The notes below the pieces were generated by a model that did no database searches, was not told where the DNA came from, and saw only the letters and a list, made by a program, of their open reading frames with translations. Positions 17,272 through 35,597 of a stretch of 64,000 bases of DNA are shown here, piece by piece. A program made the translations under genes and the position numbers. The DNA comes from Alphaproteobacteria bacterium (GTDB lineage Bacteria; Pseudomonadota; Alphaproteobacteria; Rs-D84): positions 14,100 through 78,099 of the forward strand of contig JAGBXO010000007.1 of the NCBI GenBank assembly GCA_017629245.1. The letters are read 5' to 3'. The stretch's first letter is position 1, and every line of letters starts with the position of its first letter.

Positions 17272-20200
17272 CTATTGGTTATCATTCACCACAGAATACT
17301 TAGTATTATTATACTTCACCTTCAGTGGGCCCGATAACGTTGTACTCATATTACCATAGAACATCTTCTCGCCAACTTTCAGATGCAACAGTGGCGATAT
17401 CCCCGTGCGCTTTTCACTGCGCAGATATATTACATTATCACCTGCATGCAACTTGCGTCCACAGTCGCCGGCCTCGTTCGCGCACAGCCCCGCGCCACAT
17501 GTCACCAGACCTGTTGCACATGCCGTACGGGTCAGGCTGTCCGCCCCCGACCAGTATCCACTTTCAACATCCCGACATACATTCGCCAACAAATCTGACG
17601 ATGTTTTGTATGTAAAGTCTTGCGTGGCACTGGTACTATCATTAAACTGTTTATTGTAATACCCACCATTACATGTCAAGTCTGGCTTATTTACCCAACA
17701 GCCTTTACCATCACCCTTTACGCCATATGTGTCCGCACTCGCATCAACATAACACGAATACATAGTCAGATTCCCATCAGCTATTGATGCATTTTTAAAG
17801 CTTGCCTGACATCCTGCGCGAACTGTGTGATTCCCGGCCTCGTTGCTAGTATTCCAGTATCCATACCCCGATGCACCCGACACAGTCGGACATGGTTCAC
17901 ATTTACTCATACCTTCCTGGTCTGCATATGTCGCATCTGTACAAGCATCACAGCTGGATAATTCTCCATATGTCACTGGATGTGCTTCCTTGGCATAGCC
18001 CAACGCGCATTTACCACTGGCACTGCTTTCTTTGGCAACTTTAACATACTTGCCGCCCAGAACATTCATTGTACACTGTGATTCCAGGCTGTATCCTGTT
18101 GTACCATCACGATATCCCGGCGGGCATTCTTCTCTGCCACCCGCAGTATTACCGTATAACTTTATACCGCCCGGACAGTAATAACCGGCAGAACACGTGA
18201 CAAATTCTTGGTCTCCTTCTATCTCAACATAATTACCAGGAGTTGTTATTGCATAACACTGTTCATATTTATCCGCCCCCACATCAGATTTATTGAAAAC
18301 ATTGTCACCACTTTCATCACATGGCGTGCGTCCACCGGTTGTTGGGTGTGTATCAGATGATGTGCCACCATAGTATACCTTGACCGAACCTGGGCAATAT
18401 CCATCCGCTGCACACGAAACCAGACCCGCACCCGCATTCGCAACATAATTCGTGGCTGTTGTATTCAGGTAACAGTCATTAACCGTTGTTGCGCCCGCCG
18501 CAGACAACGTGTACTTACTATTTGTACCACTTGAACATGTCGCGCATGCATTGCTGTTCTTATAGTAGTTTGCAGAACATCCCGCTGTTGCCTTAATCGT
18601 GCACAGATTGGTCATCTTGTTATCTGTGCCCCAAACCGGCGTTTCCCAACCTGTTGATTCCACCCCCGTCGCGTTAGAGCAGGTTGCTGTACACGATGTC
18701 GCACCATCCGCACTGTTCGTCTTGCCCCCAGCACATGCTTTACACGCGCTTTGTCCTGTTGTATCAGTGTACGAACCCATCACACATTTCGTCTGGTTGC
18801 TGGCCCCTGTTGTACCGACAAAGTACCCCGCATCCGCCAAATTACATGCAACTGTATTACCCAATGCAACTGTAGTTGAGGCCTTGTATGTACCTGTCGC
18901 ACACGCCTTTGGTGCTGCTGATAACACAACCAGTTCGCCCGTTGGATTTTCAGTGTTCCGTGTTTGGAAATCCGCATCCTGGAATACTGTTGTATAATCC
19001 TGGTTGTTTTCCGATACAGAAATCGCCATATTCTGGTACACACGTCCGTCGGTGTACATCGCAAATTTAATAGACCCCAGATTTTGTACCGAACCCAAAT
19101 CCCAAACCAACGTTGACCCCTGGGCATACGTTTCCCCTGTTGTGCCACGTGTCCAGGAACCATCTGTTGCCGCCGTCAACTTTGAACCTGTTGTGCCACC
19201 TTTGCCAGACAACAGATTCGTACCTGTTCCATCTGCAGATGCAAACGCCTGGATTTCCAGCATGTGTGTATCAGAGTTTTTTGCACTGCCACTTGATGTC
19301 ACTTTGATATAACGCGCTGCAATCGTAGTAGCACCAACCATTTTACCTTGTACTGTCTGTACACAATCAGATTTTGCATCGTGACCACTGGCCGATGTAC
19401 TGGTCGATGTATATCCATCCATACAGTAATTAACAGGTGATATATTGCCCCAATTAACCAAATGTGCACCTGTGAACCAACCACCCGCTGGCGATGTACA
19501 TGCTGCATTCGCGCTAACAACACGCGTACCCGCTGCACAAGACGCCTGACACTGGCTTACATTTGTCTTACCAGTTTGCGTGCCACCACGATAGTTAGAA
19601 TCGCATATGCCACATGTTTGACCCTCGATACATGTGCCAGTTGCAGATGTGCCACCACCGTTGGAGTAGTATGCCACCGCTAATTTGCCACATGTTTTAC
19701 CACTGCCGGTACAGCCGTTACCGTTGGCGGTTGGTGTTTTTGTTGTTCCGCCACCTGTTGAATAATAACCGCCATCAACTATGCCGCATGTATTTGCTGT
19801 GCCATCAGATTTTTCCCCAACACAACTGTTTGACAGATATGGGGCGGCTTTTTTCGCACCACCTGTCGAATAATAACCTGCCTCAATCAGACCGCAACTT
19901 TTGCCATCAATACATGTGCCATTTGCCGTTGTTCCACCACCTGTTGCATAAAACCCACCAGCAATTGCGCCACATTCATAACCACTGATGCATGTACCAT
20001 TGGGCGACGTTCCACCACCAGTGCTGTAATAACCTGCCGCAACTGGGGACATAGATGAACCGTCGGTTGTATAATATCCCGCAGGTACCACACCTCCTTT
20101 ATAGTCACCGGAACAAACACCACCAATGTCATCTATACCACATCCGTCATTATAATATCCAGACTGAATCGCCCCACATTCACATCCTGCCGCGCAATCG

Positions 20201-23200
20201 ACATCTTGAGTTGCAGGGTATTTATATGTTGCACCACATGTCGAATAATAGCCACTTGATATAACACCGCAATAGTCATAATCGCCACCCATACCGATAC
20301 AATCAGACTTGGCAGTTGGTGTCGCAGTTTTGGCGCCTGAAACAGACCAATAGCCCGCATTAATTAAACCACATGTATTACCCGAACCGACACAATCAGA
20401 AGCCGTTGGTTTAGCCACGGTTGCGCCACCTGTTGCGAAATACCCACCGTCGACCTGGCCACTACCTGTGCTGGATGTTGCGCCTGCTGCCCCCCAATAA
20501 CCTGGTTCAACGGTACCACATTGCGTTGTGCTATCATTTACGCAACCACTACCACGCGTGACCGGTGTTGGTGATGTACCACCACCCATGTTATAATACC
20601 CCGCATTAACCTTGCCATTACCCATAGGCATTGTTGCACCACCGGTTGAGTAATATCCCGCATCAACCATGCCGCTACCCTTCTGGGTTGTTGCTCCGGC
20701 TTCGCCCCAATAGCCCGCTGCAATTCTTCCGCCCTGATTTTGAGAACATGAACTCTGGATTCCTCCCTCTGGATCTGCACCACAACCATTGTTCCAATAT
20801 CCTGCAGAAACCTTACCTGAACCCTTTGAACTCGTTGCGCCGTATCCGCCCCAATAACCCGCATCAATTATTCCTCCTCTATTGGATGAAGAACAAGAAG
20901 TATCGATTCCACCTTTTGGATTTATGCCACAACCGTCATTCCAATATCCTGGCAAAAGCTGGCCACAACCCTTATCTTTCAGGCATCCATTACCCGGACT
21001 GGTTGGTCTTGCAGCTGTTCCACCACCGGTTGAGTAAAATCCTGCATCAACCACGCCACTACCAGCCGGTGTTGTTGCGCCGGCTTCACCCCAATGCCCC
21101 GGACTAATAATTCCTCCTGCATACTCCGAACCACAAGCATCACTAATTCTCCCATCTGGATTTGTACCACAACCATTATTCCAATATCCTGCAGAAACCT
21201 TACCACAGCCATTAGTGCCCTCGAGAACACATCCATCTCCAGCTGTTGTTGGTGTTGCCGATGTTCCCCCTCCAGTGTTCCAATATCCTGCATCAATCGC
21301 GCCACATTCTTGTCCGTCCAGACATCCATTCCCCGCCTCGTACGGGTTTTCCAATGTTCCGCCACCATTGGAATAAAATCCTGCCAAAACCATGCCGCTA
21401 CCCTTCGAGGTTGTTGCGCCGGCTTCGCCCCAATAGCCCGCCTCAATTGTTCCGCACTCAAAGCCCAGCTTTGTGTTACATACACCTTCTGCATACATAC
21501 CTGCACCGGTTGAATAATACCCCGCTTTAACCTTGCCACAGCTTTGCCCCGGCAGGCATCCATTGCCCGCACCGGTTGGTGTCAACGACGTTCCACCGCT
21601 ATTGGAATAGTATCCTGCTGCAACACTGCCACATTCTTCGCCTTCTGCACAACCTGCACCAATCGCCGATGAACCACCACCAGTTGAATATGCGCCACCC
21701 GCAACCATTCCACATGCTTTAAATGAGCTATTCGACATACCTGGTTCCTCATAGTATCCTGTACAATCTGTACCATGAACCGGTGTTGCGGTTGTCATAC
21801 CAGTAACCCTACTGTAATATCCCGGCGCCAACTTTCCGCATTCCTGACCGGCCAGGCATCCGTTCCCCGCCGCGGTTGGTGTCGCCGACGTTCCACCGCC
21901 ATTGGAATAGTACCCAAGCCCAACTGCACCAGAACCCTTGCTGGATGTACCGGCACCTGCGGACCAATATCCCGGCTCAATCATACCGCATTCTTGCTGG
22001 CTGCGACATCCCATGCGAACAGTGCTTATCCCCTGATTTAACAAATCAACATTGAACCCCAGGGCAGTACTGTTTGTTACATCTAAATTCCCCGGTGCAG
22101 GCAATACACCACCACCCGTCGAATAATATCCTGGCAAAATCGAACCGCAGACATTTTTGCGTGGCACTTCAGTACTTCCCCAGATATCAGTTCCAATATA
22201 ACCAACACAATCTGCCGATGTTGGGTTTGATTTTATCGCCCCCCCGGTCGAGAAGTATCCTGCCTCAAGCTCGCCGCATGTTCCACCTGCTACGCAGTCT
22301 TCATTTGAATGTGGTTGGGCTGTTTTCGCACCACCGGTTGAAAAACAACCTGCCGCTACAGCACCTTCACCAGTTGAGCTTTTTCCGCCACCGCTTGACC
22401 AATAACCCGGGGCAACCTTGCCACAATTTTCGCCTGCAATACACCCGTTTCCACTGGCGGTTGGACGTGGATGTGTACCACCACCGGTTGAATAATAACC
22501 TGCATCAACAAAACCACAGCCCATAGAGTTTGCAACACCATCAATCGTTACCAGTTCACAGTCTGCACTCATATAACTTGGTGATTTCTTTTTCATCCCC
22601 GGTTGCACACTGAAATATCCCGCAGCCAATGGCCCACAACCATTGCCACCGACACAGCCCGTACCTTCTTTTGGTGTTGATGTTGTCGCACCACCAGCTG
22701 AATAGTATCCAACACTGACCAAACCATCAATCCCCAAATTATCAGCATATGTACCACTGCCACAAGATGTAAACCCCGTACGCCCGCTACAGTACGAACC
22801 AGCAGGGCATACCTGTGCATCACGATACAACATACTCCGGGTACTATCATCACAATAGGTATCTGAATACCTTGTCGTCAAATAATAACCTGCATTTGGG
22901 CGCGTATAATACAAATTGCCGTTTTTATCATATTTTTCGGTGCTGGTGTTATATTGCACAGCTTCTATTATAAAATAACCACGCGAGTTTGTATAAGAAT
23001 AAGTTGCCCTACAAGATTCAATCGTTGTCCCCCCAACCAAAGAACTCCAATCTGTTTGTTGTGCCGAACCTAATACCAAATTCTCGTTTGGATAAACATA
23101 GGCACCGTGTGTCAGGTTATCATAACTGGTCATCTTATGATCCGCAACCGTCGGACATGCCGTACATTCCACAACATCCGATGCAGCAACGGTCACTTCG

Positions 23201-24390
23201 CCGTGATATGTCCCGGGCACGCATTGGGTATTTGTTCTGACCCTGACGGGTACATGTTGCATCACGGCCGGTGCTGCCGAGGTAGAACTAACCAGGCCAT
23301 TAAATACAGTTGTCCATGTTGTGGCATCGGCCGATATTTCGATTACGATCTTGCGCGTAATATTACCCCCCAACGCAAATAAAATATTTGAAATCGGCAC
23401 AACCCCACTTGTTCTAAACATCGCCATATATCCCTGGGCAGATGTTGCACTTACTACAGCAGTAGTACCCAAATTACCATCTATGGCATTACCTGCACTT
23501 ATCATAGAAGAATTTGCACTTAATCCCTGTGCTACACCATCGGAAATCACTTGAATTTCTGCCAATGGAAACGCACCTTGCACAGAACTGATTCGGATAT
23601 ATTGTGCATCTGGTTCGGCGACCACAGAACTGTATCCACCCGGCACCGTCACCAAACAATCGGCCGCCGAATCATGTAAACTAGGTACCATGCCACGCAT
23701 ATCAGAACCGTATGGACAATAGGTAATTGATGAAATCCTACCATAGTAAACATTATGTACTTTCGAACTGTACCATGACATACCTATGGTCGAGTCACTT
23801 CCCGTAGTACAGGCGTTACCAGGGCTAAACACAGCCGTACCAGGCGCACAAGTTGCATAACAATCCGATTGTGAATCTGAACCCGCCGCACTGTTTCCAT
23901 AACCTGTTGGGCATGCAGTTGGGCTGCTACTGCCTTCTGGACAGTATGAATTTGCAGGACAAGCACCCGTAATTCCACGATCTGTTGATGTTGCAACTTC
24001 GTCTGTTGTATCTGTTGGCGCATCGCAAACTTTCCCCGCAGGACACTTAGCGCATGTTGTAGTGCCCGCCATGATATATTCCCCAGCGGCGCAATGAATC
24101 CCCGCCCTTACCGGACACGCTTGACCGCCTAAACATTTATACCCATCTGGACACTTTAAACATGTTTTGCCAACGACAGGCGTGGCCATAGTTCCCGTCC
24201 ACGCCGACGAATCGGTGCCGCATGCCTCAAGATAATAGCCTTCGACACACGAAGTATACGTCTCAACCGTGTTACAGGTATACCCCGCCGCCATCAAATT
24301 ACCGGTAAAAAGCAAAACGAATAAAAACGCGCAAAACCGCAGAAATCTAAACATTCTTCCCACTTTCTTTTTCTCTTTTGTATTTATCAT
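17272..24390 (-). CDS. Giant (~2370 aa) secreted cysteine-rich surface protein with two F5/8-type-C (discoidin)-like domains and ~30 tandem Gly-rich repeats
   Basis: Signal peptide (MINTKEKKKVGRMFRFLRFCAFLFVLLFTGNLMA). The maximal ORF extends to 24474; likely starts are 24390 or 24354. Two discoidin-like regions are present (…AGNAIDGNLGTTAV… and …ATDGSWTRGTTGETYAQGSTLVWDLG…). A long array of ~35-aa repeats of form AGY(Y/W)S-GGG-S-TPT--GNGC--G--CG-h-AGY follows. Cys-rich modules (CxxC.AG.Y., TTPGNYV...C.AGYYCPGG) are shared with the 38733..45632 protein. Confidence 0.6.
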   Translation of the reverse strand: MINTKEKKKVGRMFRFLRFCAFLFVLLFTGNLMAAGYTCNTVETYTSCVEGYYLEACGTDSSAWTGTMATPVVGKTCLKCPDGYKCLGGQACPVRAGIHCAAGEYIMAGTTTCAKCPAGKVCDAPTDTTDEVATSTDRGITGACPANSYCPEGSSSPTACPTGYGNSAAGSDSQSDCYATCAPGTAVFSPGNACTTGSDSTIGMSWYSSKVHNVYYGRISSITYCPYGSDMRGMVPSLHDSAADCLVTVPGGYSSVVAEPDAQYIRISSVQGAFPLAEIQVISDGVAQGLSANSSMISAGNAIDGNLGTTAVVSATSAQGYMAMFRTSGVVPISNILFALGGNITRKIVIEISADATTWTTVFNGLVSSTSAAPAVMQHVPVRVRTNTQCVPGTYHGEVTVAASDVVECTACPTVADHKMTSYDNLTHGAYVYPNENLVLGSAQQTDWSSLVGGTTIESCRATYSYTNSRGYFIIEAVQYNTSTEKYDKNGNLYYTRPNAGYYLTTRYSDTYCDDSTRSMLYRDAQVCPAGSYCSGRTGFTSCGSGTYADNLGIDGLVSVGYYSAGGATTSTPKEGTGCVGGNGCGPLAAGYFSVQPGMKKKSPSYMSADCELVTIDGVANSMGCGFVDAGYYSTGGGTHPRPTASGNGCIAGENCGKVAPGYWSSGGGKSSTGEGAVAAGCFSTGGAKTAQPHSNEDCVAGGTCGELEAGYFSTGGAIKSNPTSADCVGYIGTDIWGSTEVPRKNVCGSILPGYYSTGGGVLPAPGNLDVTNSTALGFNVDLLNQGISTVRMGCRSQQECGMIEPGYWSAGAGTSSKGSGAVGLGYYSNGGGTSATPTAAGNGCLAGQECGKLAPGYYSRVTGMTTATPVHGTDCTGYYEEPGMSNSSFKACGMVAGGAYSTGGGSSAIGAGCAEGEECGSVAAGYYSNSGGTSLTPTGAGNGCLPGQSCGKVKAGYYSTGAGMYAEGVCNTKLGFECGTIEAGYWGEAGATTSKGSGMVLAGFYSNGGGTLENPYEAGNGCLDGQECGAIDAGYWNTGGGTSATPTTAGDGCVLEGTNGCGKVSAGYWNNGCGTNPDGRISDACGSEYAGGIISPGHWGEAGATTPAGSGVVDAGFYSTGGGTAARPTSPGNGCLKDKGCGQLLPGYWNDGCGINPKGGIDTSCSSSNRGGIIDAGYWGGYGATSSKGSGKVSAGYWNNGCGADPEGGIQSSCSQNQGGRIAAGYWGEAGATTQKGSGMVDAGYYSTGGATMPMGNGKVNAGYYNMGGGTSPTPVTRGSGCVNDSTTQCGTVEPGYWGAAGATSSTGSGQVDGGYFATGGATVAKPTASDCVGSGNTCGLINAGYWSVSGAKTATPTAKSDCIGMGGDYDYCGVISSGYYSTCGATYKYPATQDVDCAAGCECGAIQSGYYNDGCGIDDIGGVCSGDYKGGVVPAGYYTTDGSSMSPVAAGYYSTGGGTSPNGTCISGYECGAIAGGFYATGGGTTANGTCIDGKSCGLIEAGYYSTGGAKKAAPYLSNSCVGEKSDGTANTCGIVDGGYYSTGGGTTKTPTANGNGCTGSGKTCGKLAVAYYSNGGGTSATGTCIEGQTCGICDSNYRGGTQTGKTNVSQCQASCAAGTRVVSANAACTSPAGGWFTGAHLVNWGNISPVNYCMDGYTSTSTSASGHDAKSDCVQTVQGKMVGATTIAARYIKVTSSGSAKNSDTHMLEIQAFASADGTGTNLLSGKGGTTGSKLTAATDGSWTRGTTGETYAQGSTLVWDLGSVQNLGSIKFAMYTDGRVYQNMAISVSENNQDYTTVFQDADFQTRNTENPTGELVVLSAAPKACATGTYKASTTVALGNTVACNLADAGYFVGTTGASNQTKCVMGSYTDTTGQSACKACAGGKTNSADGATSCTATCSNATGVESTGWETPVWGTDNKMTNLCTIKATAGCSANYYKNSNACATCSSGTNSKYTLSAAGATTVNDCYLNTTATNYVANAGAGLVSCAADGYCPGSVKVYYGGTSSDTHPTTGGRTPCDESGDNVFNKSDVGADKYEQCYAITTPGNYVEIEGDQEFVTCSAGYYCPGGIKLYGNTAGGREECPPGYRDGTTGYSLESQCTMNVLGGKYVKVAKESSASGKCALGYAKEAHPVTYGELSSCDACTDATYADQEGMSKCEPCPTVSGASGYGYWNTSNEAGNHTVRAGCQASFKNASIADGNLTMYSCYVDASADTYGVKGDGKGCWVNKPDLTCNGGYYNKQFNDSTSATQDFTYKTSSDLLANVCRDVESGYWSGADSLTRTACATGLVTCGAGLCANEAGDCGRKLHAGDNVIYLRSEKRTGISPLLHLKVGEKMFYGNMSTTLSGPLKVKYNNTKYSVVNDNQ
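19700..22800 (-). repeat. Intragenic tandem repeat array (~100-nt period, Gly/Cys-rich ~33-35 aa units) inside the giant protein gene
   Basis: Repeated peptide units are visible in the translation (AGYYSTGGGTS.TPT..GNGC..G..CG...AGYW, GYWGEAGATT.KGSG.V.AGYY...). Boundaries are approximate. Confidence 0.55.
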
Positions 24391-24476
24391 AGAAAAACCA
24401 GCATTTTTGCACAAGTAAAAAATTCCCCAATCACAGAAATTATTTTTTTGACAGTATGTTTTACTATCCGCCAATC

Positions 24477-26092: not shown

Positions 26093-26512
26093 ATGAGCGG
26101 CAAACCATTTAGACCAAATTCAATTGATGAACATATTGGCCAGCGTATGCAACTGCGCCGCATTATGATGGGCATGTCCCAGAAAGATTTGGCAAAAATC
26201 TGTGGGGTCACATTTCAACAGATTCAAAAATATGAATCCGCAGGCAATCGCATATCTGCATCGCGCCTGTTTGAACTAAGTGCCGCACTGGAAACCCCGG
26301 TTTCATTTTTCTTTGCTGGCTTGCCTGGTCATATCGAGCGCGAACCACGCAACGGTCACTTGCCAAAAACACATTTGCGCGACAACCGTCCATCTGATCC
26401 ATTGGGAAAAAATGAATCATTACAATTAATAAATCTGTATTGGAAATTACCAAATGACGAGCAACGCGAAATGGTAATGAAAATGTTGCGCGCCCTAAAT
26501 GGCCAGGAATAG
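26093..26512 (+). CDS. XRE-family helix-turn-helix transcriptional regulator
   Basis: HTH_3 motif (IGQRMQLRRIMMGMSQKDLAKICGVTFQQIQKYESAGNRISASRLFELSAALETPVSFFF). Confidence 0.75.
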   Translation: MSGKPFRPNSIDEHIGQRMQLRRIMMGMSQKDLAKICGVTFQQIQKYESAGNRISASRLFELSAALETPVSFFFAGLPGHIEREPRNGHLPKTHLRDNRPSDPLGKNESLQLINLYWKLPNDEQREMVMKMLRALNGQE

Positions 26513-26532
26513 GGCACATTCAATATTATTAT

Positions 26533-26557
26533 AAACCGCCACGGCGGTTTTTTTTAT
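26533..26557 (+). terminator. Terminator after XRE regulator gene
   Basis: AACCGCC-ac-GGCGGTT hairpin followed by T8. Confidence 0.5.
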
Positions 26558-26625
26558 TATTCCTATTTACACAGATAAATAAAAGTTTAGCAAAGTATTT
26601 TAAATAAAAAAAATTAAGAACCCTT

Positions 26626-26650
26626 GTCATCCCCGCGACGGCGGGGATAG
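26626..26650. repeat. Short palindromic element GTCATCCCCGCGACGGCGGGGATAG (copy 2)
   Basis: Perfect inverted repeat ATCCCCGC/GCGGGGAT with GTCAT prefix. It is 21/25 identical to the element at 2108..2132. Confidence 0.5.
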
Positions 26651-26744
26651 AGGCCAAGAAATTTCAGAAATATTACTTAGTGCGCTTTGCATACGGTTTT
26701 AAAGTCCTATTCCTGCCTGCGCGGTAATGACAAAACAGTAAAAA

Positions 26745-26768
26745 CCCGCCACATGGGCGGGATTTTTC
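26745..26768. terminator. Bidirectional terminator immediately after the 26768..27964 gene
   Basis: CCCGCC-acatg-GGCGGG hairpin; a T-run on the plus strand overlaps the minus-strand stop codon and an A-run precedes it. Confidence 0.5.
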
Positions 26769-27964
26769 TATTCCGTTTGTTGATCAGCTTTTTTTCCTGT
26801 GACACATTCTTTATATTCATCTGGCGATGTTTTGGCCCAACATTGCCCATCTACATTATTTTTATACGAAACCTTATTTCGACTTTTGCCATACTGTAAA
26901 TCTAAATGTGAATACCCAATGGCAGTCTTACAAACTCCCGTTTTCACATCAAAATATTGCCCCGTCTGATTACAGACCACACATGTTCCATCATTTGGAT
27001 TTGGTCCGCCCTTAACACTGGTTGCACAATCTTGACACTCATCGGTTTTACCTGCCGCAGGAAATGCTTTGGTTTGATCTCTACAGACATAAATATAACA
27101 ATTGCGTTCCTTATCCTTTCGTTTTATATGCAGCGAAGAATTATACCCACTTTCTGGAAAGTTTCCACAGAACACAGGATTTATATCTTCGATTGCTTCT
27201 GCTGTTGCAGGCACACAATCTGTATTTGTATCGTTCGGCAAATATCCCTGTTTACATAACAATTTTCTTGTATTCGACACCAAATCTGCACGTTGAACCC
27301 ATGAATTAATACCCTTCCAGCCATCCCACTGACAACCAACCTGAACCGGTGCGGCCAGAATACCATTCTTCAAAAACTTCACAGCCCCTAAAATAATATC
27401 TTGTTCTCCATGATCGTTCCACACCCCAGCATACCAATAATAATTCCAGGTATTAAAACCATAAATATTCGATTCATAATTACTTATACGGCCACCAGAT
27501 GTCTTTTTCGTGATACCACTACGCAAAGAAGAAATAACATCGCCAACATCTGTTGTTTCCACAGAAAACATTTTTTCACATCCTGGACCAGAATATCCCT
27601 TTTCGCATAACCATACACATTTGCTGTCTTGCCAACCATTTGGACGATGATACAGTGTCCAAGACCAATGATTCTTTCTTGCGTTTGCACACTGAATTTG
27701 ATAGGGGCAAAAAAATCCACCATGTTCCGCTATCTGTTCTGCAACAACCGCGACAATTGCGCCTTCATCACCATAAGTGCCTATAGATGCAAAACCTAAT
27801 GAGCCATCAATAATAAATTCACCAGCGCTTCCCATACTGTTGACGTCTTTTTGTCCCGAATATCCCCATGCTGTGGCCATGTTACTATCTACATGATTTA
27901 TCGCCCAACCAGCACTTGTCCCAAGCGTCGCAAAGAATACTGAAGCATACAAGTATTTTTTCAT
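26768..27964 (-). CDS. Secreted cysteine-rich protein (398 aa) with EGF-like CxC..GY.G..C motif
   Basis: Signal peptide MKKYLYASVFFATLGTSAGWA. It carries 20+ Cys, including CVWLCEKGYSGPGCE which resembles the EGF consensus. No other known domain. Confidence 0.5.
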   Translation of the reverse strand: MKKYLYASVFFATLGTSAGWAINHVDSNMATAWGYSGQKDVNSMGSAGEFIIDGSLGFASIGTYGDEGAIVAVVAEQIAEHGGFFCPYQIQCANARKNHWSWTLYHRPNGWQDSKCVWLCEKGYSGPGCEKMFSVETTDVGDVISSLRSGITKKTSGGRISNYESNIYGFNTWNYYWYAGVWNDHGEQDIILGAVKFLKNGILAAPVQVGCQWDGWKGINSWVQRADLVSNTRKLLCKQGYLPNDTNTDCVPATAEAIEDINPVFCGNFPESGYNSSLHIKRKDKERNCYIYVCRDQTKAFPAAGKTDECQDCATSVKGGPNPNDGTCVVCNQTGQYFDVKTGVCKTAIGYSHLDLQYGKSRNKVSYKNNVDGQCWAKTSPDEYKECVTGKKADQQTE

Positions 27965-27967
27965 ATT

Positions 27968-30508
27968 TTAATTCTCCGGTGCCACATAGCATATGCCATT
28001 CTCATAATACCCATTCCCCAGCAACTTGCACTGGTTTTCATACCATTCGGCACTAAATTCACATTCATCCTTGTCCGCATTATATTTTGCCAACAATTTC
28101 GTCTCTGTTGTACCACCATCTACATCTTCTTTATCTGATGTGACGTTCGAATTGTATGCCTCGCACAATACGCGGGTTGTGTTTTGTACACACTTGCCCC
28201 ATGATGCGGCACCTTTGGTTGTGCTGCTGCTGCCGGTGCCATATATCGCGTTATAGAAGCCAACCAAATCCGGCGCGTTCAGCAATCCTCTGTTCGACTC
28301 TTTGTTTTCTGCAACAATGTCTGCATCGACCCAATAACCATCCAATTCTTCGCATTTTTCAATAAATACATATTCCATTTGCCATTTTATTTCATTAATC
28401 GCCTGGTCAATCTTGTTCAATGTATCCAATGCTATCGCCCCATTCGCTGTCAGTGCCTGACGCGCCGCCGCCGCTGTTGCATTGCTTGCAATCTGCGGTT
28501 TTGTCTTCGTTGGATCTGCACATGAATTTGCCGCAAACTTATAGACATTAATACTCAATTCATCCAAACCCCACTGACGGCAATTCCATGGGAACGCCTC
28601 ACCACTGCCATCTGTTGGTGTGCACCATTCCTTTAACTGGGTTTCAATTGCTGCATCGCAACCTTCGGCAACACGAACATTATCAACAGTATCAACAAAC
28701 GCCAACAATGATGTCAAACCGCATCTTGTTGATGCTGTTCCATCTGCCTTCTGGGTTCCTGCCGTCAAACGGCCATTTCCATCAAATTCGCAGCCTGTCG
28801 TATCACCATACAGCGATGCACACGCAATAACCTTGTCTTCACACATTGCCTTGGCTGCATATGCCGACATCGCCCCCGATGTTTTAGCGGTTGTATCATC
28901 AAAGCTTTTCAATGCACTGGACTGAGTGTCATAACATTCTTTCATTGTATTAACGCACGACATCTTGACTTCTTCAATCTTGGCATCTTGCGCCTGGGCG
29001 ATTTCAATTAACGCCATGCGTTTGAATTCTGTCCACACATTATCGGCAATACCACGGCACGAATCCAACGCAGTTTCTGCATACATTTTCTTAGAATCCA
29101 AGAACTGATCAAATTTTGGATTCTGCCCCAGAACATCCATATCTCCACCGGCCCCGGCCAGGGTAATAATGTTTGTCAATTCAAACAAACGCTGGGAATA
29201 AATCGGTTCACCCGTTGACTGATTTACATATGCGCCACTGTAATCCAAACAACGTTTATAATTCGGACCGCACGCTGTATCTGCCAACAAAGCGGCCTGG
29301 ACCTTGGCGATACATTCGTTTACATCACGCGAATTATGCGCACGGTATTCTTCCAGACGGGCATCACGCAGAATTTTTTCCGCCTGGCGAACGGTTGACA
29401 TAACCTGTTCACGTTTTTTATTAACATTTTTTTCATATGCGTTACAATCCTGAGAAATCATGATATTATACGCACTGGTCGCCATGTTCAGAACCGCATT
29501 GCTTTCACAATTTTCCTTAATTAACTGAACGCACTGCTTATTAGATTCATTATACAATGCCTGACCTTCTAATGTGGTCAAATCTACACCGCCACCGGTG
29601 CTGAATATAGAACCACTGTCAAACGGATCCGCACCACCTTCGCCCCAAACATCGCCGATATCGGTTGAAAAATCTAATGATATAACCCCCAAAGACGACG
29701 AAGAAGTAGTTGCACTTGCCGATGTCGCTTTCTTTTTTCCAGACAACAAATCACCAATTTCATTCAAAATGCTTTGCGCCCCACTGGTGTCGTTTTTAAT
29801 CGCCGCTTCACCAACTGTTGCAGTGTACATTGCATTAACTTCGGCCGCTGTCTTATCAACTGCATTTAAATTATTGTCTTCAAACTTCTGCAACAGAACC
29901 TTAGCCTGATCCATGGCCCATTCCATATCACGGAATTCCGTAAATCTGGAACTGCAGAAACAACGGCGATATGTATCATTTGCATTTGCACAAAACTGAT
30001 CCATACATGTTGCATATGCATCACGACATTCTGAATACCCACCACCAATCTTGGAAATATCTGTAAACACCGCCGTTGCACGTGCACGCGACGCCGCACG
30101 GGCCAGACCACTGATTACACTGGCTGCACTGCGTGCTGCATGTCCACCAACACTTGGTATTGTGGCACGCCCCGCATTAACCACACCACTGCGCGCCATT
30201 GTCGCACTGCGCCCCGGTTGCACACGAGCATTCGTTGCACTGCGCGCGGTTTTCTTTTTATCCATCGAAACATCACGTGATGCAACCGACACATCACGAC
30301 GCACGGCACTGCGCGAAGTATTAGCCACAACATTCGCATTAGCCCCAGCACCACGTTTAACCACACGGCCATCGGCACGCCCGGCAACAACATTGGCCGC
30401 TGTCGCACTGCGCGGATTTGGTGCCTGATCAGCACGCGCCAAACCGACACCGCCAACCGTCGCTAAAACCGCAGAAAACTTACAAAAATGTGTTAATATA
30501 TGTTTCAC
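27968..30508 (-). CDS. Large secreted protein (846 aa) with N-terminal Ala/Arg/Ser-rich low-complexity region and Cys-containing C-terminal region
   Basis: Signal peptide (MKHILTHFCKFSAVLATVGGVGLARA). Residues 30-160 are a low-complexity R/A/S/V region. The remainder has ~30 Cys and no recognised motif. A 3-nt gap separates it from the downstream gene. Confidence 0.5.
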   Translation of the reverse strand: MKHILTHFCKFSAVLATVGGVGLARADQAPNPRSATAANVVAGRADGRVVKRGAGANANVVANTSRSAVRRDVSVASRDVSMDKKKTARSATNARVQPGRSATMARSGVVNAGRATIPSVGGHAARSAASVISGLARAASRARATAVFTDISKIGGGYSECRDAYATCMDQFCANANDTYRRCFCSSRFTEFRDMEWAMDQAKVLLQKFEDNNLNAVDKTAAEVNAMYTATVGEAAIKNDTSGAQSILNEIGDLLSGKKKATSASATTSSSSLGVISLDFSTDIGDVWGEGGADPFDSGSIFSTGGGVDLTTLEGQALYNESNKQCVQLIKENCESNAVLNMATSAYNIMISQDCNAYEKNVNKKREQVMSTVRQAEKILRDARLEEYRAHNSRDVNECIAKVQAALLADTACGPNYKRCLDYSGAYVNQSTGEPIYSQRLFELTNIITLAGAGGDMDVLGQNPKFDQFLDSKKMYAETALDSCRGIADNVWTEFKRMALIEIAQAQDAKIEEVKMSCVNTMKECYDTQSSALKSFDDTTAKTSGAMSAYAAKAMCEDKVIACASLYGDTTGCEFDGNGRLTAGTQKADGTASTRCGLTSLLAFVDTVDNVRVAEGCDAAIETQLKEWCTPTDGSGEAFPWNCRQWGLDELSINVYKFAANSCADPTKTKPQIASNATAAAARQALTANGAIALDTLNKIDQAINEIKWQMEYVFIEKCEELDGYWVDADIVAENKESNRGLLNAPDLVGFYNAIYGTGSSSTTKGAASWGKCVQNTTRVLCEAYNSNVTSDKEDVDGGTTETKLLAKYNADKDECEFSAEWYENQCKLLGNGYYENGICYVAPEN

Positions 30509-30565
30509 TTCAATTCTCTCTTTTCTTCATTCTAACATTTTTTGCCATTTTAAATCAACAGCAAA

Positions 30566-30799
30566 TTAAATCTTTTTATTTTTTTCATAAAAATATTTAC
30601 TGCATCGTTCTGCTATATCCGCATCTGAACATTTTGCATATTTGCCTAATACCACCTGAACATCATGCAACAGTGGCACAACCCCCGGGTTTTCCGTTGC
30701 GCACTGCATCGCCATATGCAAATTCATCATTGCAACCTGCAAATCATTATCAGTACAGATATCAAACAAATTCTTTTTTTGCGCCATACAAACCACCAT
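30566..30799 (-). CDS. Small Cys-containing hypothetical protein (~70 aa)
   Basis: Short ORF co-directional with the flanking genes; its start overlaps the upstream gene's stop. Weak support. Confidence 0.3.
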   Translation of the reverse strand: MVVCMAQKKNLFDICTDNDLQVAMMNLHMAMQCATENPGVVPLLHDVQVVLGKYAKCSDADIAERCSKYFYEKNKKI

Positions 30800-31317
30800 T
30801 ATTTAGTTATGAACCAAAACATCACCGTCATAAGCATCAGCAATGACAAAGGCACAGCAACCTTTTGAAAAGGAAATTTTGCACGCCCGCCATTGTTGCG
30901 TTTAATCTTAACATACCAGCGCGCCCCAAAATAAAACGCAACCGTACCAACGATAACACCCAACAAGAACTTGTCGATGCCCCACAGTGTAATCGCACCA
31001 AAATCTATACCTGGCATTAAGTAAACCATTCCCAACAAAGCATAATACACAACAAAAGGCACAACAATCTGCCACCAGAAATTATTAACACCATGCTTGT
31101 TCAACCAACCAACAGTCCAGAAATACAAAGATAATGTCAATCCGCCCGCCCAAATTCCGGTAATAACATCATCAACCCCCAACAGGCGCGCCCCTTCTAA
31201 TCCTGCACCAACCGCAATTGTACATACCGGACAAACAGCATCTGCTGCACAAATTGCACATAAAAAAGCAGATAATGCCACAAACAATTTTTTCATTACT
31301 TTCTTCCTTTTTTTCAA
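30799..31317 (-). CDS. Polytopic membrane protein with periplasmic CPVC motif (possible thiol-disulfide oxidoreductase-like)
   Basis: Signal/TM segment, a CPVC pair right after the first hydrophobic segment, and 3-4 further TM helices. Confidence 0.45.
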   Translation of the reverse strand: MKKRKKVMKKLFVALSAFLCAICAADAVCPVCTIAVGAGLEGARLLGVDDVITGIWAGGLTLSLYFWTVGWLNKHGVNNFWWQIVVPFVVYYALLGMVYLMPGIDFGAITLWGIDKFLLGVIVGTVAFYFGARWYVKIKRNNGGRAKFPFQKVAVPLSLLMLMTVMFWFITK

Positions 31318-31342: not shown

Positions 31343-32188
31343 TCAATATGTTTTTACAACCCCGCGCATATGCGCCGATCGGGCGCGTGGATTATTCTCT
31401 AACTCGATTTCCGATGGCACAACAGGTTTTATCATTTTAAACGGCGCGTCTTCAACCACAGGCATGCGTGGATCACCAAGCGGTATTGTCCACGTTCGAA
31501 AGGTATTTTTAACAATTCTATCTTCTAATGAATGAAAAGTCACACATATACATTTGCCACCAAGCGTTAACATACCTGGCACCGCCTCCAAGGCACGCTC
31601 AACTTCGCCCATTTCATCATTTACCACAATACGCAATGCCTGAAAGACTGGCGCGACATCCTTGGGATTATGAATTAAATCACGCAATTCAAATGTTGTT
31701 TCTGGCAGCGCTTCTTTCATCGCACGCGCCAATATATTTGCTTTTTTTACATCGCCATAAACACGCAGAATTTCTGCCAATTCAGCAACAGATTTTTCTT
31801 TTATTAAATCTTGGGCGGTCATACCACTTTGCGCCATACGCATATCCAACGGCGCATCCATACGAAAAGAAAAACCACGCGCGGCCACATCAATCTGCAT
31901 AGAAGATATTCCCAAATCAAACACAACAGCATCAACTGTTCTGTCTAAATCCGCAATTTTTGAAAATGGTGCTGCCACAAATTCAAATTGTTCTGGAAAC
32001 TCACCCTTTAGCGCATTAGCATCTGCCACAACATTTGGATCACGATCGAACGCAATAACGTTTGCACCACGCACCAAGAACGCCCGCGAATACCCGCCCG
32101 CACCAAATGTACAGTCAACAATCGTCTTGCCACGAATATCCCCCAGACCATCCAACACCGCATCCAATAACACAGGAATATGTTTCAT
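31343..32188 (-). CDS. rsmH: 16S rRNA (cytosine1402-N4)-methyltransferase RsmH
   Basis: MKHIPVLLDAVLDGL...IVDCTFGAGGYSRAFL SAM-binding motif; 281 aa. Confidence 0.9.
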   Translation of the reverse strand: MKHIPVLLDAVLDGLGDIRGKTIVDCTFGAGGYSRAFLVRGANVIAFDRDPNVVADANALKGEFPEQFEFVAAPFSKIADLDRTVDAVVFDLGISSMQIDVAARGFSFRMDAPLDMRMAQSGMTAQDLIKEKSVAELAEILRVYGDVKKANILARAMKEALPETTFELRDLIHNPKDVAPVFQALRIVVNDEMGEVERALEAVPGMLTLGGKCICVTFHSLEDRIVKNTFRTWTIPLGDPRMPVVEDAPFKMIKPVVPSEIELENNPRARSAHMRGVVKTY

Positions 32189-32189
32189 G

Positions 32190-35100
32190 TTATTCCACCT
32201 CTACCTTTAAACCTAATGCAGTTAAGTCTGCAACCGTTGTCGCCCCCAGTTCAACACCACCCGGCAATGCAACCGTCGCTGTTTTTTCTGCACCATGCAG
32301 AACCAATTCTACACGCGTATAACCACGGGGCAGGGCAACCAAAGCCTTTTTCACATCCTGTAATACAGTCTGGTCCCGTATGTCCAGTGTTAACTTCTTG
32401 GCAATTTTTGCCACCCATTCTGTCAGCGGAGTGATAGAATCCACAAATATAGACACCCTGTCATCACGATTTGATGTTTTTCCCGAAATAACAACCGCAT
32501 TTTCGTTCGCTAAAATCTGGGCAAATTCAATAGAGGCATCGCCAAACGCCACCGCATCAATATTACCATGACTGTCCGAAGCGTTTATAGTTATCATTTC
32601 CTTGCCCGTCTTGGTACGGCGACGACCAAAACTATTTACATTTGCGGCAATCTGCACCGGTTTTCTGTCGCCCATCTTCTCTAAGGTTGCGCTGGTCGCC
32701 AAATTTGACCGTTGGATTAAATGCTTGTACTGATCCAACGGATGTGCCGAGATATAGAACCCCAACGCAGACAATTCATTTTCCAATTTTTGTCCAAATG
32801 TCCATGGGTCTGTCTTGGGCAAATTTTTGCGTAATCTATCTTCGTCAACATCGTCTTCGGTCGTATTCGCAAATAATGACAGCATATTTGCACCATCTTT
32901 TGACTTTGCCGCATACGACAAAATCGCATCCGCATTCAGGTAAATCAGCGCACGATTTGGCTCTAACGAATCCAGAACACCCGTCTTGGCAAATGCTTCC
33001 AAAATGCGTTTATTCATAATTGGCGCACAACGCTTTGCAAAGTCTGTTAAATTCCTAAACTTACCATTTGCATTTCTTTCTGCAACAATCGCATCTGTCG
33101 CGACTGTACCAACCCCTTTCAGTGCCGCCAATCCATAAATAATTTTACCATCACGCACCGTAAACAATGATTCACTTTGATTAATATCTGGCGCAACAAT
33201 CTGAATACCGAAATTAGTCTTGGCATCATCCACAAATATCGCCAATTGGTCGGTGTCATTCAAATTACTTGACATAGATGCCGCTAAAAATTCTGGCGTA
33301 TAGTTTGCCTTTAGATAGGCGCACTGATTTGCTACAATTGAATAGGCAATGGCGTGCGATTTATTGAATGCATATTTTGCAAAATCCTTGAACTTTTCCC
33401 ACAAATCCTTGGCTGTGGCGCGGTCCAGTGTCCCTTCTTTCTCGCACCCCTCATAGAATTTTCCTTCCAGTTCATCCAACATGGCAATAATTTTTTTACC
33501 CATCGCCTTACGCACATTATCGGATTGTCCACGTGTAAATCCGGCCAGAACACGTGTCAACTGCATAACCTGTTCCTGATACACAATAATGCCATAAGAT
33601 TCTTTCAATATCGGTTCTGCGCGCGGATGCACATATTCAATCTTTTCCTCACCATGCATACGGGCAATAAATTGTGGAATAAACGCAATTGGGCCCGGAC
33701 GATTTAATGCATTTAACGCTGATATTTCCAAGAAATTTGTCGGATGCATCTTGCGCAGGGTCTGTTGAACAAACGGGGCATCAAACTGGAATATACCTTC
33801 GGTCAATCCCTGTTGCCATAATTTCATTGTTTTTTCATCATCCGTTGGGATTTGGTCCAGGTCTATGTTTATCCCACGCGTTTGCTGAATCAACCGTGTT
33901 GCATATTTCAGCACCACCAAAGTTTCCAACCCCAAAAAGTCAAACTTAATCAACCCCGACTTTTCCAAATACTTACCATCAAACTGACATGATGGTAACG
34001 GGTTGGCAGGATCACGATAAACCGGTGCAATCTTAGTTGTTGGTCTGTCCCCAATAACAACACCACACGCATGCTGTCCCAGGTTTCGCAAACTGCCTTC
34101 TAATTCTTCAGCGACCGTCACAACCTTGCTTAAATCTTCGTCATTATTCAATATATCTTGAATTTCAGTTGACATACCAACTGCATCTTTCAGCGTTTTT
34201 GCATCCTGTGGAATTAATTTTGACAATCTATCAGATTTAGAATAGGGCATACCATACACGCGTCCAATATCACGAATTGCTCCACGCGCCTGCAATGACC
34301 CAAATGTAATAATTCGACACACTGAATCATGCCCATACTTATCACAAACATACGCCAAAACGCGTTCAATCCCGGTCGGCTCAAAATCAACGTCAAAGTC
34401 AGGCATAGAAATACGGTCTGGATTCAAAAAACGTTCAAACAGCAACCCATACTTTAACGGGTCAACATTTGTAATCCCCAACGCCCACGCCACAATTGAA
34501 CCTGCGCCTGAACCACGCCCAGGGCCAGTCAAAACATCGTTATTTCTGCACCAATCAATATAGTCCGCCACAATCAAGAAATACCCTGGGAACCCCATAC
34601 CGATAATAACACCCAATTCAAATTCAGCCTGTTCATAGTATGGCGCAGTATCTGTAATGTTATGCTGCTCTAGCCTGCGCTTTAATCCATTCATGGTATT
34701 ATCACGCAACATTTGACATTCTGTTTCTAAATCGTCACCAAAACGTGGCAACAAAGGCTTTTCGTGTACATTAACCATAAACCCACAACGCCTTGCAATA
34801 ACAACCGTGTTTTCAATCGCCTCAGGCAGGTCAGAAAATATTTCAGACATTTCCTCGTACGACTTAAAATATTGTTCCGAAGATTTTCTGGGGCGTTCTG
34901 GGTCAATAACCTTGGTCTGTCCCAACACGCAACTTAACGCATCTGCCGGTTCATAGTCTTTATCAGACGCAAAGCACACATCGTTTGTCGCAACAATTGG
35001 AATATTTAATTCCTGGGCAATATTCAAGAATTCTGGTTCGGTCTTTATTTCATTTTCCAGACCATGCCGCTGAATTTCCATATAAAACCGGTCGCCAAAC

Positions 35101-35597
35101 ATTTCCAAGAATCGCTTTGCATACCCCCGGGCCAGTTCATCTTGATTATTCAAAATCGCCATACCTATCGGCCCCAAATGCGCCCCAGACAGACAAATCA
35201 ATCCATCACTATGACTGGTCAATTCATCAAATGAAATATACGGTCCCAGATGATGATTTTCTGTGCGCATATACATCACACGGTTCAATTCGCATAAATT
35301 CAAATATCCGGCATGATTCTGGGCCAACAAAACGATTTTTGACAAAGCCTCGGCCCGTAATATTTTTGGATCTGCATTATGATGATTTAATGTTATTTCA
35401 ACCCCAATGATTGGTTGCAATTTATTCTTGGGCATAACATCTGAAAATTCTGCACACCCAGACATCAGATTTGTATCCGTTAATGCACAGGCACTCATTC
35501 CTGCGCCCTGACATAATCCTGGTATTCCCTTAACTGTCAACGTACTTGCACCAACTGAAAAACGCGAATGTGTACGAAGATGAACAAATTGCTGCAT
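32190..35597 (-). CDS. dnaE: DNA polymerase III alpha subunit
   Basis: PHP N-terminus (HLRTHSRFSVGAST) plus the polymerase core (…FDGKYLEKSGLIKFDFLGLETL…); 1135 aa. Confidence 0.9.
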   Translation of the reverse strand: MQQFVHLRTHSRFSVGASTLTVKGIPGLCQGAGMSACALTDTNLMSGCAEFSDVMPKNKLQPIIGVEITLNHHNADPKILRAEALSKIVLLAQNHAGYLNLCELNRVMYMRTENHHLGPYISFDELTSHSDGLICLSGAHLGPIGMAILNNQDELARGYAKRFLEMFGDRFYMEIQRHGLENEIKTEPEFLNIAQELNIPIVATNDVCFASDKDYEPADALSCVLGQTKVIDPERPRKSSEQYFKSYEEMSEIFSDLPEAIENTVVIARRCGFMVNVHEKPLLPRFGDDLETECQMLRDNTMNGLKRRLEQHNITDTAPYYEQAEFELGVIIGMGFPGYFLIVADYIDWCRNNDVLTGPGRGSGAGSIVAWALGITNVDPLKYGLLFERFLNPDRISMPDFDVDFEPTGIERVLAYVCDKYGHDSVCRIITFGSLQARGAIRDIGRVYGMPYSKSDRLSKLIPQDAKTLKDAVGMSTEIQDILNNDEDLSKVVTVAEELEGSLRNLGQHACGVVIGDRPTTKIAPVYRDPANPLPSCQFDGKYLEKSGLIKFDFLGLETLVVLKYATRLIQQTRGINIDLDQIPTDDEKTMKLWQQGLTEGIFQFDAPFVQQTLRKMHPTNFLEISALNALNRPGPIAFIPQFIARMHGEEKIEYVHPRAEPILKESYGIIVYQEQVMQLTRVLAGFTRGQSDNVRKAMGKKIIAMLDELEGKFYEGCEKEGTLDRATAKDLWEKFKDFAKYAFNKSHAIAYSIVANQCAYLKANYTPEFLAASMSSNLNDTDQLAIFVDDAKTNFGIQIVAPDINQSESLFTVRDGKIIYGLAALKGVGTVATDAIVAERNANGKFRNLTDFAKRCAPIMNKRILEAFAKTGVLDSLEPNRALIYLNADAILSYAAKSKDGANMLSLFANTTEDDVDEDRLRKNLPKTDPWTFGQKLENELSALGFYISAHPLDQYKHLIQRSNLATSATLEKMGDRKPVQIAANVNSFGRRRTKTGKEMITINASDSHGNIDAVAFGDASIEFAQILANENAVVISGKTSNRDDRVSIFVDSITPLTEWVAKIAKKLTLDIRDQTVLQDVKKALVALPRGYTRVELVLHGAEKTATVALPGGVELGATTVADLTALGLKVEVE

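Follow-up and report, generated by a model that had tools for sequence, protein, structure and literature searches.

A conserved CPxC membrane protein encoded behind dnaE-rsmH in Rs-D84 Alphaproteobacteria, a candidate component of an extracytoplasmic thiol-disulfide relay

Introduction

The 64,000-nucleotide (nt) stretch of contig JAGBXO010000007.1 analyzed here, hereafter the window, comes from an alphaproteobacterium of the Rs-D84 lineage and carries, behind dnaE and rsmH, a string of genes for a small membrane protein with a Cys-Pro-Val-Cys (CPVC) motif, a 77-amino acid (aa) protein (p77) and two exported cysteine-rich proteins of 846 and 398 aa (p846 and p398). We propose that the membrane protein, which belongs to a wider family with a CPxC motif, forms the membrane part of a thiol-disulfide relay outside the cytoplasm and is a non-homologous functional analog of DsbB and VKOR, acting as a general rather than a dedicated factor, with p846, p398 and two giant exported proteins encoded on either side of the string as its likely clients. 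We put this proposal at about even chances of being right.

The core of the gene string is a two-gene module common to Rs-D84 and Patescibacteria, made up of the CPxC protein and a cytoplasmic helical partner with E-E-H, C-x2-K-H and CC-x-E motifs, which is reduced to 77 aa in the window genome. The signal peptide of the CPxC protein is probably cleaved, which would leave an N-terminal V-C-P-x-C exposed at the outer face of the inner membrane. From there the protein would maintain exported oxidases of the thioredoxin fold, or the substrates themselves, in the oxidized state, and it would do so in organisms devoid of a respiratory chain. Redox activity, the oxidizing direction and the client relationship are what we infer from the conservation, synteny, topology, domain fusions and cysteine frameworks described below.

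Since 2008 it has been asked how bacteria that have neither DsbB nor VKOR make their structural disulfides. According to a 2026 preprint, about 20% of surveyed species lack any known disulfide-forming enzyme even after MauE is added to the list (10.64898/2026.03.05.709764). Rs-D84 and Patescibacteria have no respiratory chains, and among the proteins exported by Rs-D84, at least, are some with dozens to more than 100 Cys residues. A small, unannotated two-gene module that is extremely conserved, common to these two reduced-genome lineages and naturally fused to a DsbA-like domain is a testable candidate for making disulfide bonds by a new, non-homologous route, and it provides a handle on the envelope biology of two uncultured, partner-dependent groups. 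An earlier note on this DNA had tentatively read the string differently, as an accessory effector or adhesin cluster with a folding factor of its own.

The CPxC membrane protein and its family

A word-index search returned 750 close homologs of the membrane protein, some of them from Candidatus Enterousia, and the wider CPxC family comprises 404 representative clusters at 50% identity. These comparisons place the CPVC protein in an uncharacterized family common to Rs-D84 and Patescibacteria, the taxonomy of the distant members resting on few named Patescibacteria records. Known families offered no counterpart: the CPVC protein had no match in Pfam or NCBIfam, and four members searched against Pfam at E ≤ 10 had none either. 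The search of 93 family members against Pfam at E ≤ 1, with DsbB absent among the 25 families listed of 59 matched, yielded scattered noise only, such as DUF3007 and TPR, as did a search of 19 members, and a profile search of PDB sequences returned nothing meaningful, with no hit at E ≤ 10. No paper on the CPxC family was found in the literature. The UniRef name of the Enterousia ortholog (P0193, UniRef100_A0A9D1FG62) implies a DUF3429 identity, which we rejected, since current Pfam gave no hit to that domain at a threshold as loose as E ≤ 10.

Among the Rs-D84 orthologs the first 20 residues vary as those of a signal peptide do; from A20-V-C-P-V-C-T onward there is hardly any change. The ratio of nonsynonymous to synonymous substitution rates (dN/dS) is 0.05 against the ortholog at locus L007, which indicates strong purifying selection. 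When 93 diverse family members were aligned, the only invariant residues were the two Cys (C22 and C25) and one Gly, with P23 conserved at ≥90%. The motif stands directly behind the signal peptide, and the signal-peptidase -3/-1 rule is obeyed before CPxC, position -1 being Ala in 114 of the 134 clusters that carry the core motif. An AlphaFold2 (AF2) model of the CPVC protein (predicted local distance difference test, pLDDT, 88.9) shows helices at residues 23-39, 43-67, 73-93, 109-134 and 144-164, with the CxxC at the N-terminus of the first of these and four transmembrane (TM) helices after it. A CxxC at a helix N-terminus is the classical arrangement of thioredoxin-type redox active sites.

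The family-wide net charge is +2.9 in the TM1-TM2 loop, +3.7 in the TM3-TM4 loop and -1.3 in the CPxC segment. The signal peptide, which ends in an A-x-A cleavage site, and the positive-inside rule, applied across the family, support a periplasmic CPVC motif with the TM1-TM2 and TM3-TM4 loops in the cytoplasm, in agreement with the orientation assumed in the earlier note.

A thioredoxin-fold domain is fused or adjacent in relatives

A long N-terminal extension is present in 19 of the 134 representative core-motif clusters, and 13 of these extensions consist of a signal peptide and a domain with a single CxxC (CPHC in four, CPYC in two, CQYC in two, and others). The same CxxC domain is encoded by a separate 121-aa signal-anchored gene directly upstream of the CPVC gene on a Moranbacteria contig (L089). 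A profile of the extension domain, used with hmmsearch against PDB sequences, matched glutaredoxin (E 1.3e-5) and the glutaredoxin domain of thioredoxin glutathione reductase (5.6e-4), and more weakly thioredoxin and DsbA (E about 0.02-0.3, DsbA about 0.07); single extension sequences scored just under the gathering score of Pfam Glutaredoxin. Both the CxxC and a G-[VI]-P motif, corresponding to the cis-Pro loop, are invariant in the domain alignment, and we assign this domain of the relatives to the thioredoxin/glutaredoxin fold. CPHC is a DsbA-type motif, and CPHC and CPYC are typical of oxidases.

In the fusions, the exported domain is followed by a TM hairpin and a retained A-x-A site, which puts both CxxC motifs outside. 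A signal-peptidase-like A-x-A is kept in the TM helix before CPxC in fusions P0289, P0293, P0302, P0313 and P0318, and the glutaredoxin-CPxC fusions may be cut into two membrane-anchored pieces. Since the two CxxC proteins occur either fused or as neighbors, they are likely to be functionally linked, by the same logic as has been applied to VKOR and thioredoxin. This pattern backs the earlier guess that the membrane protein is a thiol-disulfide oxidoreductase; homology to DsbB, VKOR, DsbD or CcdA was not found in hidden Markov model (HMM) searches.

The wider family also includes contexts of another kind, which would fit a role in metal or metalloid handling, in which CPxC would bind metal on the outer side of a small sensor or transporter while the partner, with its CC tail and many E and H residues, served as a metallochaperone or cofactor-binding protein. 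At L093:4068-6465, and also in L094, a cytoplasmic Nitro_FeMo-Co domain is fused before a CPLC membrane domain; a split ArsP_1-like permease (145 + 164 aa) lies in front of the fusion and a CC-R-E partner behind it. Flanking another context are DUF134 and a 71-aa gene, rich in Gly, Arg and Tyr, that we take to be DUF5320-like. The invariant E-E-H, E-x2-C-x2-K-H and CC of the partner resemble ligands as well. The commonest fusion or neighbor, however, is the thioredoxin/glutaredoxin-fold CxxC domain with its cis-Pro loop and not a metal-binding domain, the CPxC occupies the helix N-cap as in redox sites, and the TM helices hold no other conserved polar ligands. We consider metal handling quite improbable as the function of the family.

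The CC-x-E partner and its 77-aa derivative

Elsewhere in Enterousia the gene after CPVC encodes a partner of 190-228 aa, found in 72 loci, and this protein is homologous to the product of the gene after CPVC in all five distinct Patescibacteria contexts that were opened (nine loci). The full-length partner is extremely conserved and has no signal peptide. It carries invariant EEHFFF, GEVWCISKHLLAAS and C-terminal CC-x-E segments, whose invariant positions (E-E-H, E-x2-C-x2-K-H and CC-x-E) include three Cys. Essentially all 8000 candidates scored in a protein search with the partner were significant, the named matches belonging in every case to Parcubacteria, Moranbacteria, Paceibacterota or Minisyncoccota; a profile search of Pfam and PDB recovered no relative. 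The partner tree places Rs-D84 in one clan apart from the sampled Patescibacteria (51% identity between the groups, about 70% within), which suggests a single ancient transfer or shared inheritance.

The p77 gene of the window holds the position of the partner gene. In the sub-lineage of the window the partner shrinks stepwise, from about 200 aa to 149, 138, 98 and finally 77/74 aa (L008, L009, L010 and L007), and hhalign aligned residues 6-50 of p77 with residues 39-89 of the partner profile, its N-terminal helix (probability 68.7%, E 4.5e-5). On the strength of the shared position, the orthologs of intermediate length and the profile alignment, p77 is to be read as a miniaturized derivative of the CC-x-E partner. 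The earlier note had listed it as a small Cys protein in a cluster of secreted products; it does contain five Cys, but neither a signal peptide nor a hydrophobic segment. EEHFFF, VWCISKH and CC-x-E have all been lost. A dead pseudogene was considered and ruled out by a dN/dS of 0.125 against the nearest relative, the gene being still coding. Since p77 lost these motifs while the CPVC protein remains under strong constraint, the membrane protein is evidently able to work without them.

The pairing also bears on the direction in which electrons would flow. A reductive or isomerase relay in the manner of DsbD/CcdA would have the partner send reducing equivalents through the CPxC protein to exported thioredoxin-fold proteins, which would correct mis-paired disulfides. 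A cytoplasmic protein with three invariant Cys (in C-x2-K-H and CC-x-E) that is always paired with the membrane protein would suit this scheme, and proteins with 14 disulfides plausibly need isomerization. The membrane protein, however, has no conserved Cys at or near the cytoplasmic face or in mid-membrane, only the outward CPxC; the CPHC and CPYC motifs of the fused domain are of the oxidase kind; and the partner has decayed in the window lineage while CPVC stays strongly constrained. We therefore regard a reductive relay as unlikely.

Conservation and distribution of the gene string

A scan of one genome per species with a narrower family alignment found 348 genomes encoding a relative of the membrane protein, and synteny was read from the best 80 of these 348. 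These 80 closest loci are all alphaproteobacterial, from Enterousia-like metagenome-assembled genomes (MAGs), and the set includes closed genomes of 0.72 and 0.96 Mb. Genomes of Rs-D84 are smaller than 1 Mb and without respiratory chains, and their owners are probably partner-dependent like Patescibacteria (PMC12306168). Comparison by tblastn revealed that the order (secA-)dnaE-rsmH-CPVC-partner-p846-p398-<XRE-iPGM is kept in about 70 of the 80 species-representative genomes. The string, which the earlier note had called an accessory cluster, is for this reason a core trait of this order of gut Alphaproteobacteria, inherited vertically throughout Rs-D84, which takes in Candidatus Enterousia and its relatives.

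In seven related alphaproteobacterial genomes (L073, L074, L077, L079, L080, L083 and L085), rsmH is followed by CPVC and its partner without adjoining p846 and p398. Six of the seven (L073-L083) have behind the pair a SIS-domain-like gene and, judging the translations by eye, apparent rpsP-rimM-trmD-rplS genes; L085 has other genes downstream. Because the CPVC-partner pair occurs without p846 and p398, a general envelope redox factor is a more economical explanation than a dedicated one. Several of the seven MAGs, together with OZ246409.1 (L070), carry the label 'Muribaculaceae' although the block is alphaproteobacterial, and they are probably mislabeled.

Exported cysteine-rich proteins

Sec-type signal peptides are recognizable by eye in both p846 and p398, in line with the export predicted for them, and the earlier approximate counts of 30 and 20 Cys become exactly 29 in p846, 28 of them after the signal peptide, and 18 in p398. 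At least 934 homologs of p846 were found, all annotated as hypothetical and all from MAGs of gut Alphaproteobacteria. An alignment of 53 p846 sequences, whose identity is only 54-80%, shows no exchange at any of the 28 mature Cys, and 16 of the 18 Cys of p398 are conserved at ≥90% in 50 orthologs, where overall identity is only 23-55%. The even numbers of Cys and the conserved Cys frameworks point to structural disulfides, with a predicted 14 in p846 and 8-9 in p398. The dN/dS of p398 is 0.27, and such fast evolution would be expected if the protein acts at the surface or in interactions.

Scans of Pfam and NCBIfam with p846, p398 and p77 gave no match. The AF2 model of p846, which is nearly all helical, is of modest quality (pLDDT 64.6, predicted template modeling score 0.40), and a Foldseek search of PDB with this modest model returned nothing at E < 0.26. 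Residues about 27-155 of p846 are disordered and rich in Ala, Arg, Val and Ser, with a recurring R-S-A motif and five Arg that are invariant across the 53 orthologs; this region could be an envelope-binding tail. The EGF-like motif reported for p398 is present, in the form C116-x3-C120-x2-G-Y-x-G-x2-C129-E; its pattern is thus CxxxCxxGYxGxxC rather than the CxCxxGYxGxxCE first described, and p398 matched no Pfam model, EGF models included, the nearest approach being a cEGF match of an ortholog (E 0.015, below the cut-off). The two proteins are similar neither to each other nor to the two giants described next, and we regard them as order-specific disulfide-rich envelope proteins without detectable relatives.

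The giant exported proteins, whose genes flank the string, share CPxGxYC-type repeats (BLASTP down to 3e-16) and match Pfam only weakly, at F5/8 type C, Ephrin_rec_like and Flg_new. They contain 128 and 157 Cys, so that far more oxidative folding is called for than p846 and p398 alone would require. Of the disulfide clients encoded in the window they are probably the largest; its four exported proteins have 332 Cys in total.

These observations bear on the suggestion that the string is a self-contained effector or adhesin module in which p846 and p398 have in the CPVC protein a dedicated folding factor. The genes are indeed co-directional, tightly spaced and closed by one terminator, and they are conserved together in about 70 genomes. 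The CPVC protein and its partner are, however, far more widespread than p846 and p398, being found without them in Patescibacteria and in the seven related genomes, so that a dedicated factor is not supported; the two much larger Cys-rich exported proteins of the window lie outside the string, and the string itself is core and not accessory. Nor did p846 and p398 bear out the effector or adhesin part, since they have Sec signal peptides only, no adjoining secretion system and no fold match, and show no sign of secretion beyond the periplasm, adhesion or toxicity. We judge the self-contained module very improbable.

Organization of the gene string

The features of the region are listed in Table 1. 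The open reading frames of the string were found on the minus strand behind dnaE and rsmH, as first described. Across most of the 80 loci dnaE is 76-100% identical, with two outliers at 61-65% (L078 and L085), and wherever the contig reaches that far, rsmH is in virtually all loci the gene directly upstream of CPVC. Profile matches above the cut-offs confirmed the identity of RsmH (PF01795, E 7.3e-69, 233 bits against a cut-off of 27; TIGR00006, E 1.1e-65, 222 bits against 154) and of the XRE-family protein (PF01381, HTH_3, E 2.2e-12, 47.2 bits against 23). The position and orientation of the XRE gene are kept in most loci, at 54-98% identity; it is a syntenic neighbor, for which no functional tie to the string is claimed.

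Table 1. Features of the gene string and its surroundings. Coordinates are positions in the 64,000-nt window; the string comprises six genes on the minus strand, from 35597 down to 26768.
Feature	Position	Strand	Remarks
dnaE (DNA polymerase III alpha, 1135 aa)	32190..35597	-	Upstream anchor of the conserved string; Pfam PHP, DNA_pol3_alpha and HHH_6 on the identical gene in L001
rsmH (16S rRNA m4C1402 methyltransferase, 281 aa)	31343..32188	-	Pfam Methyltransf_5 and TIGR00006
CPxC (CPVC) membrane protein, 165 aa	30799..31296 (open reading frame 30799-31317)	-	Signal peptide at residues 1-20, V-C-P-V-C-T helix, four TM helices
CPVC motif, codons 22-25 (tgt ccg gta tgt)	31222..31233	-	Read from the sequence
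p77, 77-aa cytoplasmic protein	30566..30799	-	Position and hhalign match to the CC-x-E partner
p846, exported, GTG start	27968..30508	-	R/A/S-rich disordered region, then helical body with 28 Cys
p398, exported, fast-evolving, 18 Cys	26768..27964	-	EGF-like CxxxCxxGYxGxxC motif; two CxxC pairs near the C-terminus
Bidirectional intrinsic-terminator hairpin ending the string	26745..26761	both	CCCGCC-ACATG-GGCGGG, T-runs on both strands
XRE-family helix-turn-helix gene (139 aa), convergent to the string	26093..26512	+	HTH_3 match
Giant exported protein, 2400 aa, 128 Cys (5.3%)	17272-24474	-	
Giant exported protein, 2299 aa, 157 Cys (6.8%)	38733-45632	-	

For the membrane protein, ATG 31296 is a much likelier start codon than TTG 31317: the ATG is preceded by an AAGGAAG Shine-Dalgarno sequence, and the same start is used in all homologs and in gene calls on a 139-kb metagenome contig from ENA with which the window is identical. 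The gap between rsmH and the CPVC gene is therefore 46 nt, not the 25 nt given before, and the remaining gaps down to p398, which had been put at 0-3 nt, are -1 (a TAATG overlap), 57 and 3 nt. Promoter-like sites inside the string, at 31346-31317 and 30558-30529, are candidates only; promoter-like and terminator-like sites in the region are not more numerous than in shuffled sequence, and an operon is accordingly suggested by spacing and strand.

The string ends, as the earlier note had it, at a bidirectional terminator facing the XRE gene, a G+C-rich hairpin with T-runs on both strands that lies 7 nt past the p398 stop codon. The convergent spacer (26513-26767, 255 nt) contains three G+C-rich hairpins, of which the one at 26533-26550 is the XRE gene's own terminator, the middle one (26629-26648) has no T-run and the third closes the string. 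Searches of the window for tRNA genes and Rfam families gave no matches. From 9000 to 51000 the GC skew of the window is strongly and uniformly negative (about -0.2 to -0.35) over minus-strand genes, and it is near zero or positive elsewhere, a pattern consistent with strand-biased gene orientation.

Discussion

Several observations weigh against a disulfide relay built on the CPxC protein. No sequence or fold similarity connects it to any known disulfide-generating or disulfide-transferring membrane protein, it has one conserved Cys pair where DsbB and VKOR use two, and no electron acceptor is evident. The cytoplasmic partner is without analog in DsbB systems and has lost its conserved motifs in the window genome, and neither the window nor the 20-kb Rs-D84 loci yielded a gene for a thioredoxin-fold CxxC protein. 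Some family contexts (the Nitro_FeMo-Co fusion, the ArsP_1-like permease and DUF134) hint at metal handling, and the adjacency of p846 and p398 could be historical only.

A bolder version of the relay can be drawn from the same elements. The CPxC protein, the CC-x-E partner and an exported CPHC thioredoxin-fold protein would together form a quinone-independent transmembrane disulfide-generating system, in which electrons would end up on the partner, a possible binder of a metal or Fe-S cofactor. Patescibacteria would owe to this system the oxidative folding for which they have seemed to lack the machinery, and an ancestor of Rs-D84 would have gained it horizontally once respiration had been lost. 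We offer it as a speculation that is considerably more likely wrong than right.

A close functional comparison for the CPxC protein is with DsbB, which is likewise small, spans the inner membrane with four TM helices and has an outward CxxC. As DsbB goes with DsbA, so the CPxC gene of relatives is genetically linked to an exported protein of the thioredoxin fold whose CPHC motif is DsbA-like, and the CPVC genome is full of exported multi-Cys proteins. Unlike DsbB (PF02600), to which no profile, PDB sequence or structural similarity was found, including superposition of the four-TM bundle, the CPxC family does not have two periplasmic Cys pairs but only C22/C25, the outside TM2-TM3 loop being free of conserved Cys, and its motif stands at the mature N-terminus behind a signal-peptidase site. 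DsbB works through the quinone pool and the respiratory chain (10.64898/2026.03.05.709764), whereas hosts of the CPxC protein lack such a chain and encode a cytoplasmic partner that looks obligatory.

VKOR shares with the CPxC family the Rosetta-stone pattern of a membrane CxxC protein that occurs either alone or fused to its presumed thioredoxin-fold partner. No match to VKOR (PF07884) was found in Pfam or PDB, the single Cys pair of the CPxC protein lies at the mature N-terminus with no loop pair, and in contrast to VKOR fusions the thioredoxin-fold domain is N-terminal, with a TM hairpin and a signal-peptidase-like site, still retained, between it and the CPxC part. The resemblance to DsbD and CcdA lies in a membrane protein placed between a cytoplasmic Cys-containing protein and an exported thioredoxin-fold domain. 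CcdA and DsbD-beta have six or more TM helices, with one Cys within the membrane in each of two pseudo-symmetric halves. The CPxC protein, by contrast, has four TM helices and both Cys in one outward CPxC, and gave no HMM match to this family (PF02683).

MauE is a recently recognized membrane protein, neither DsbB nor VKOR, that replaces DsbB and has a CXC motif and predicted ubiquinone binding (10.64898/2026.03.05.709764). The CPxC family differs from it in its motif, CPxC instead of CXC, and has no Pfam match to PF07291; the likeness is that MauE, too, shows gaps left by DsbB to be filled by unrelated families of small membrane proteins.

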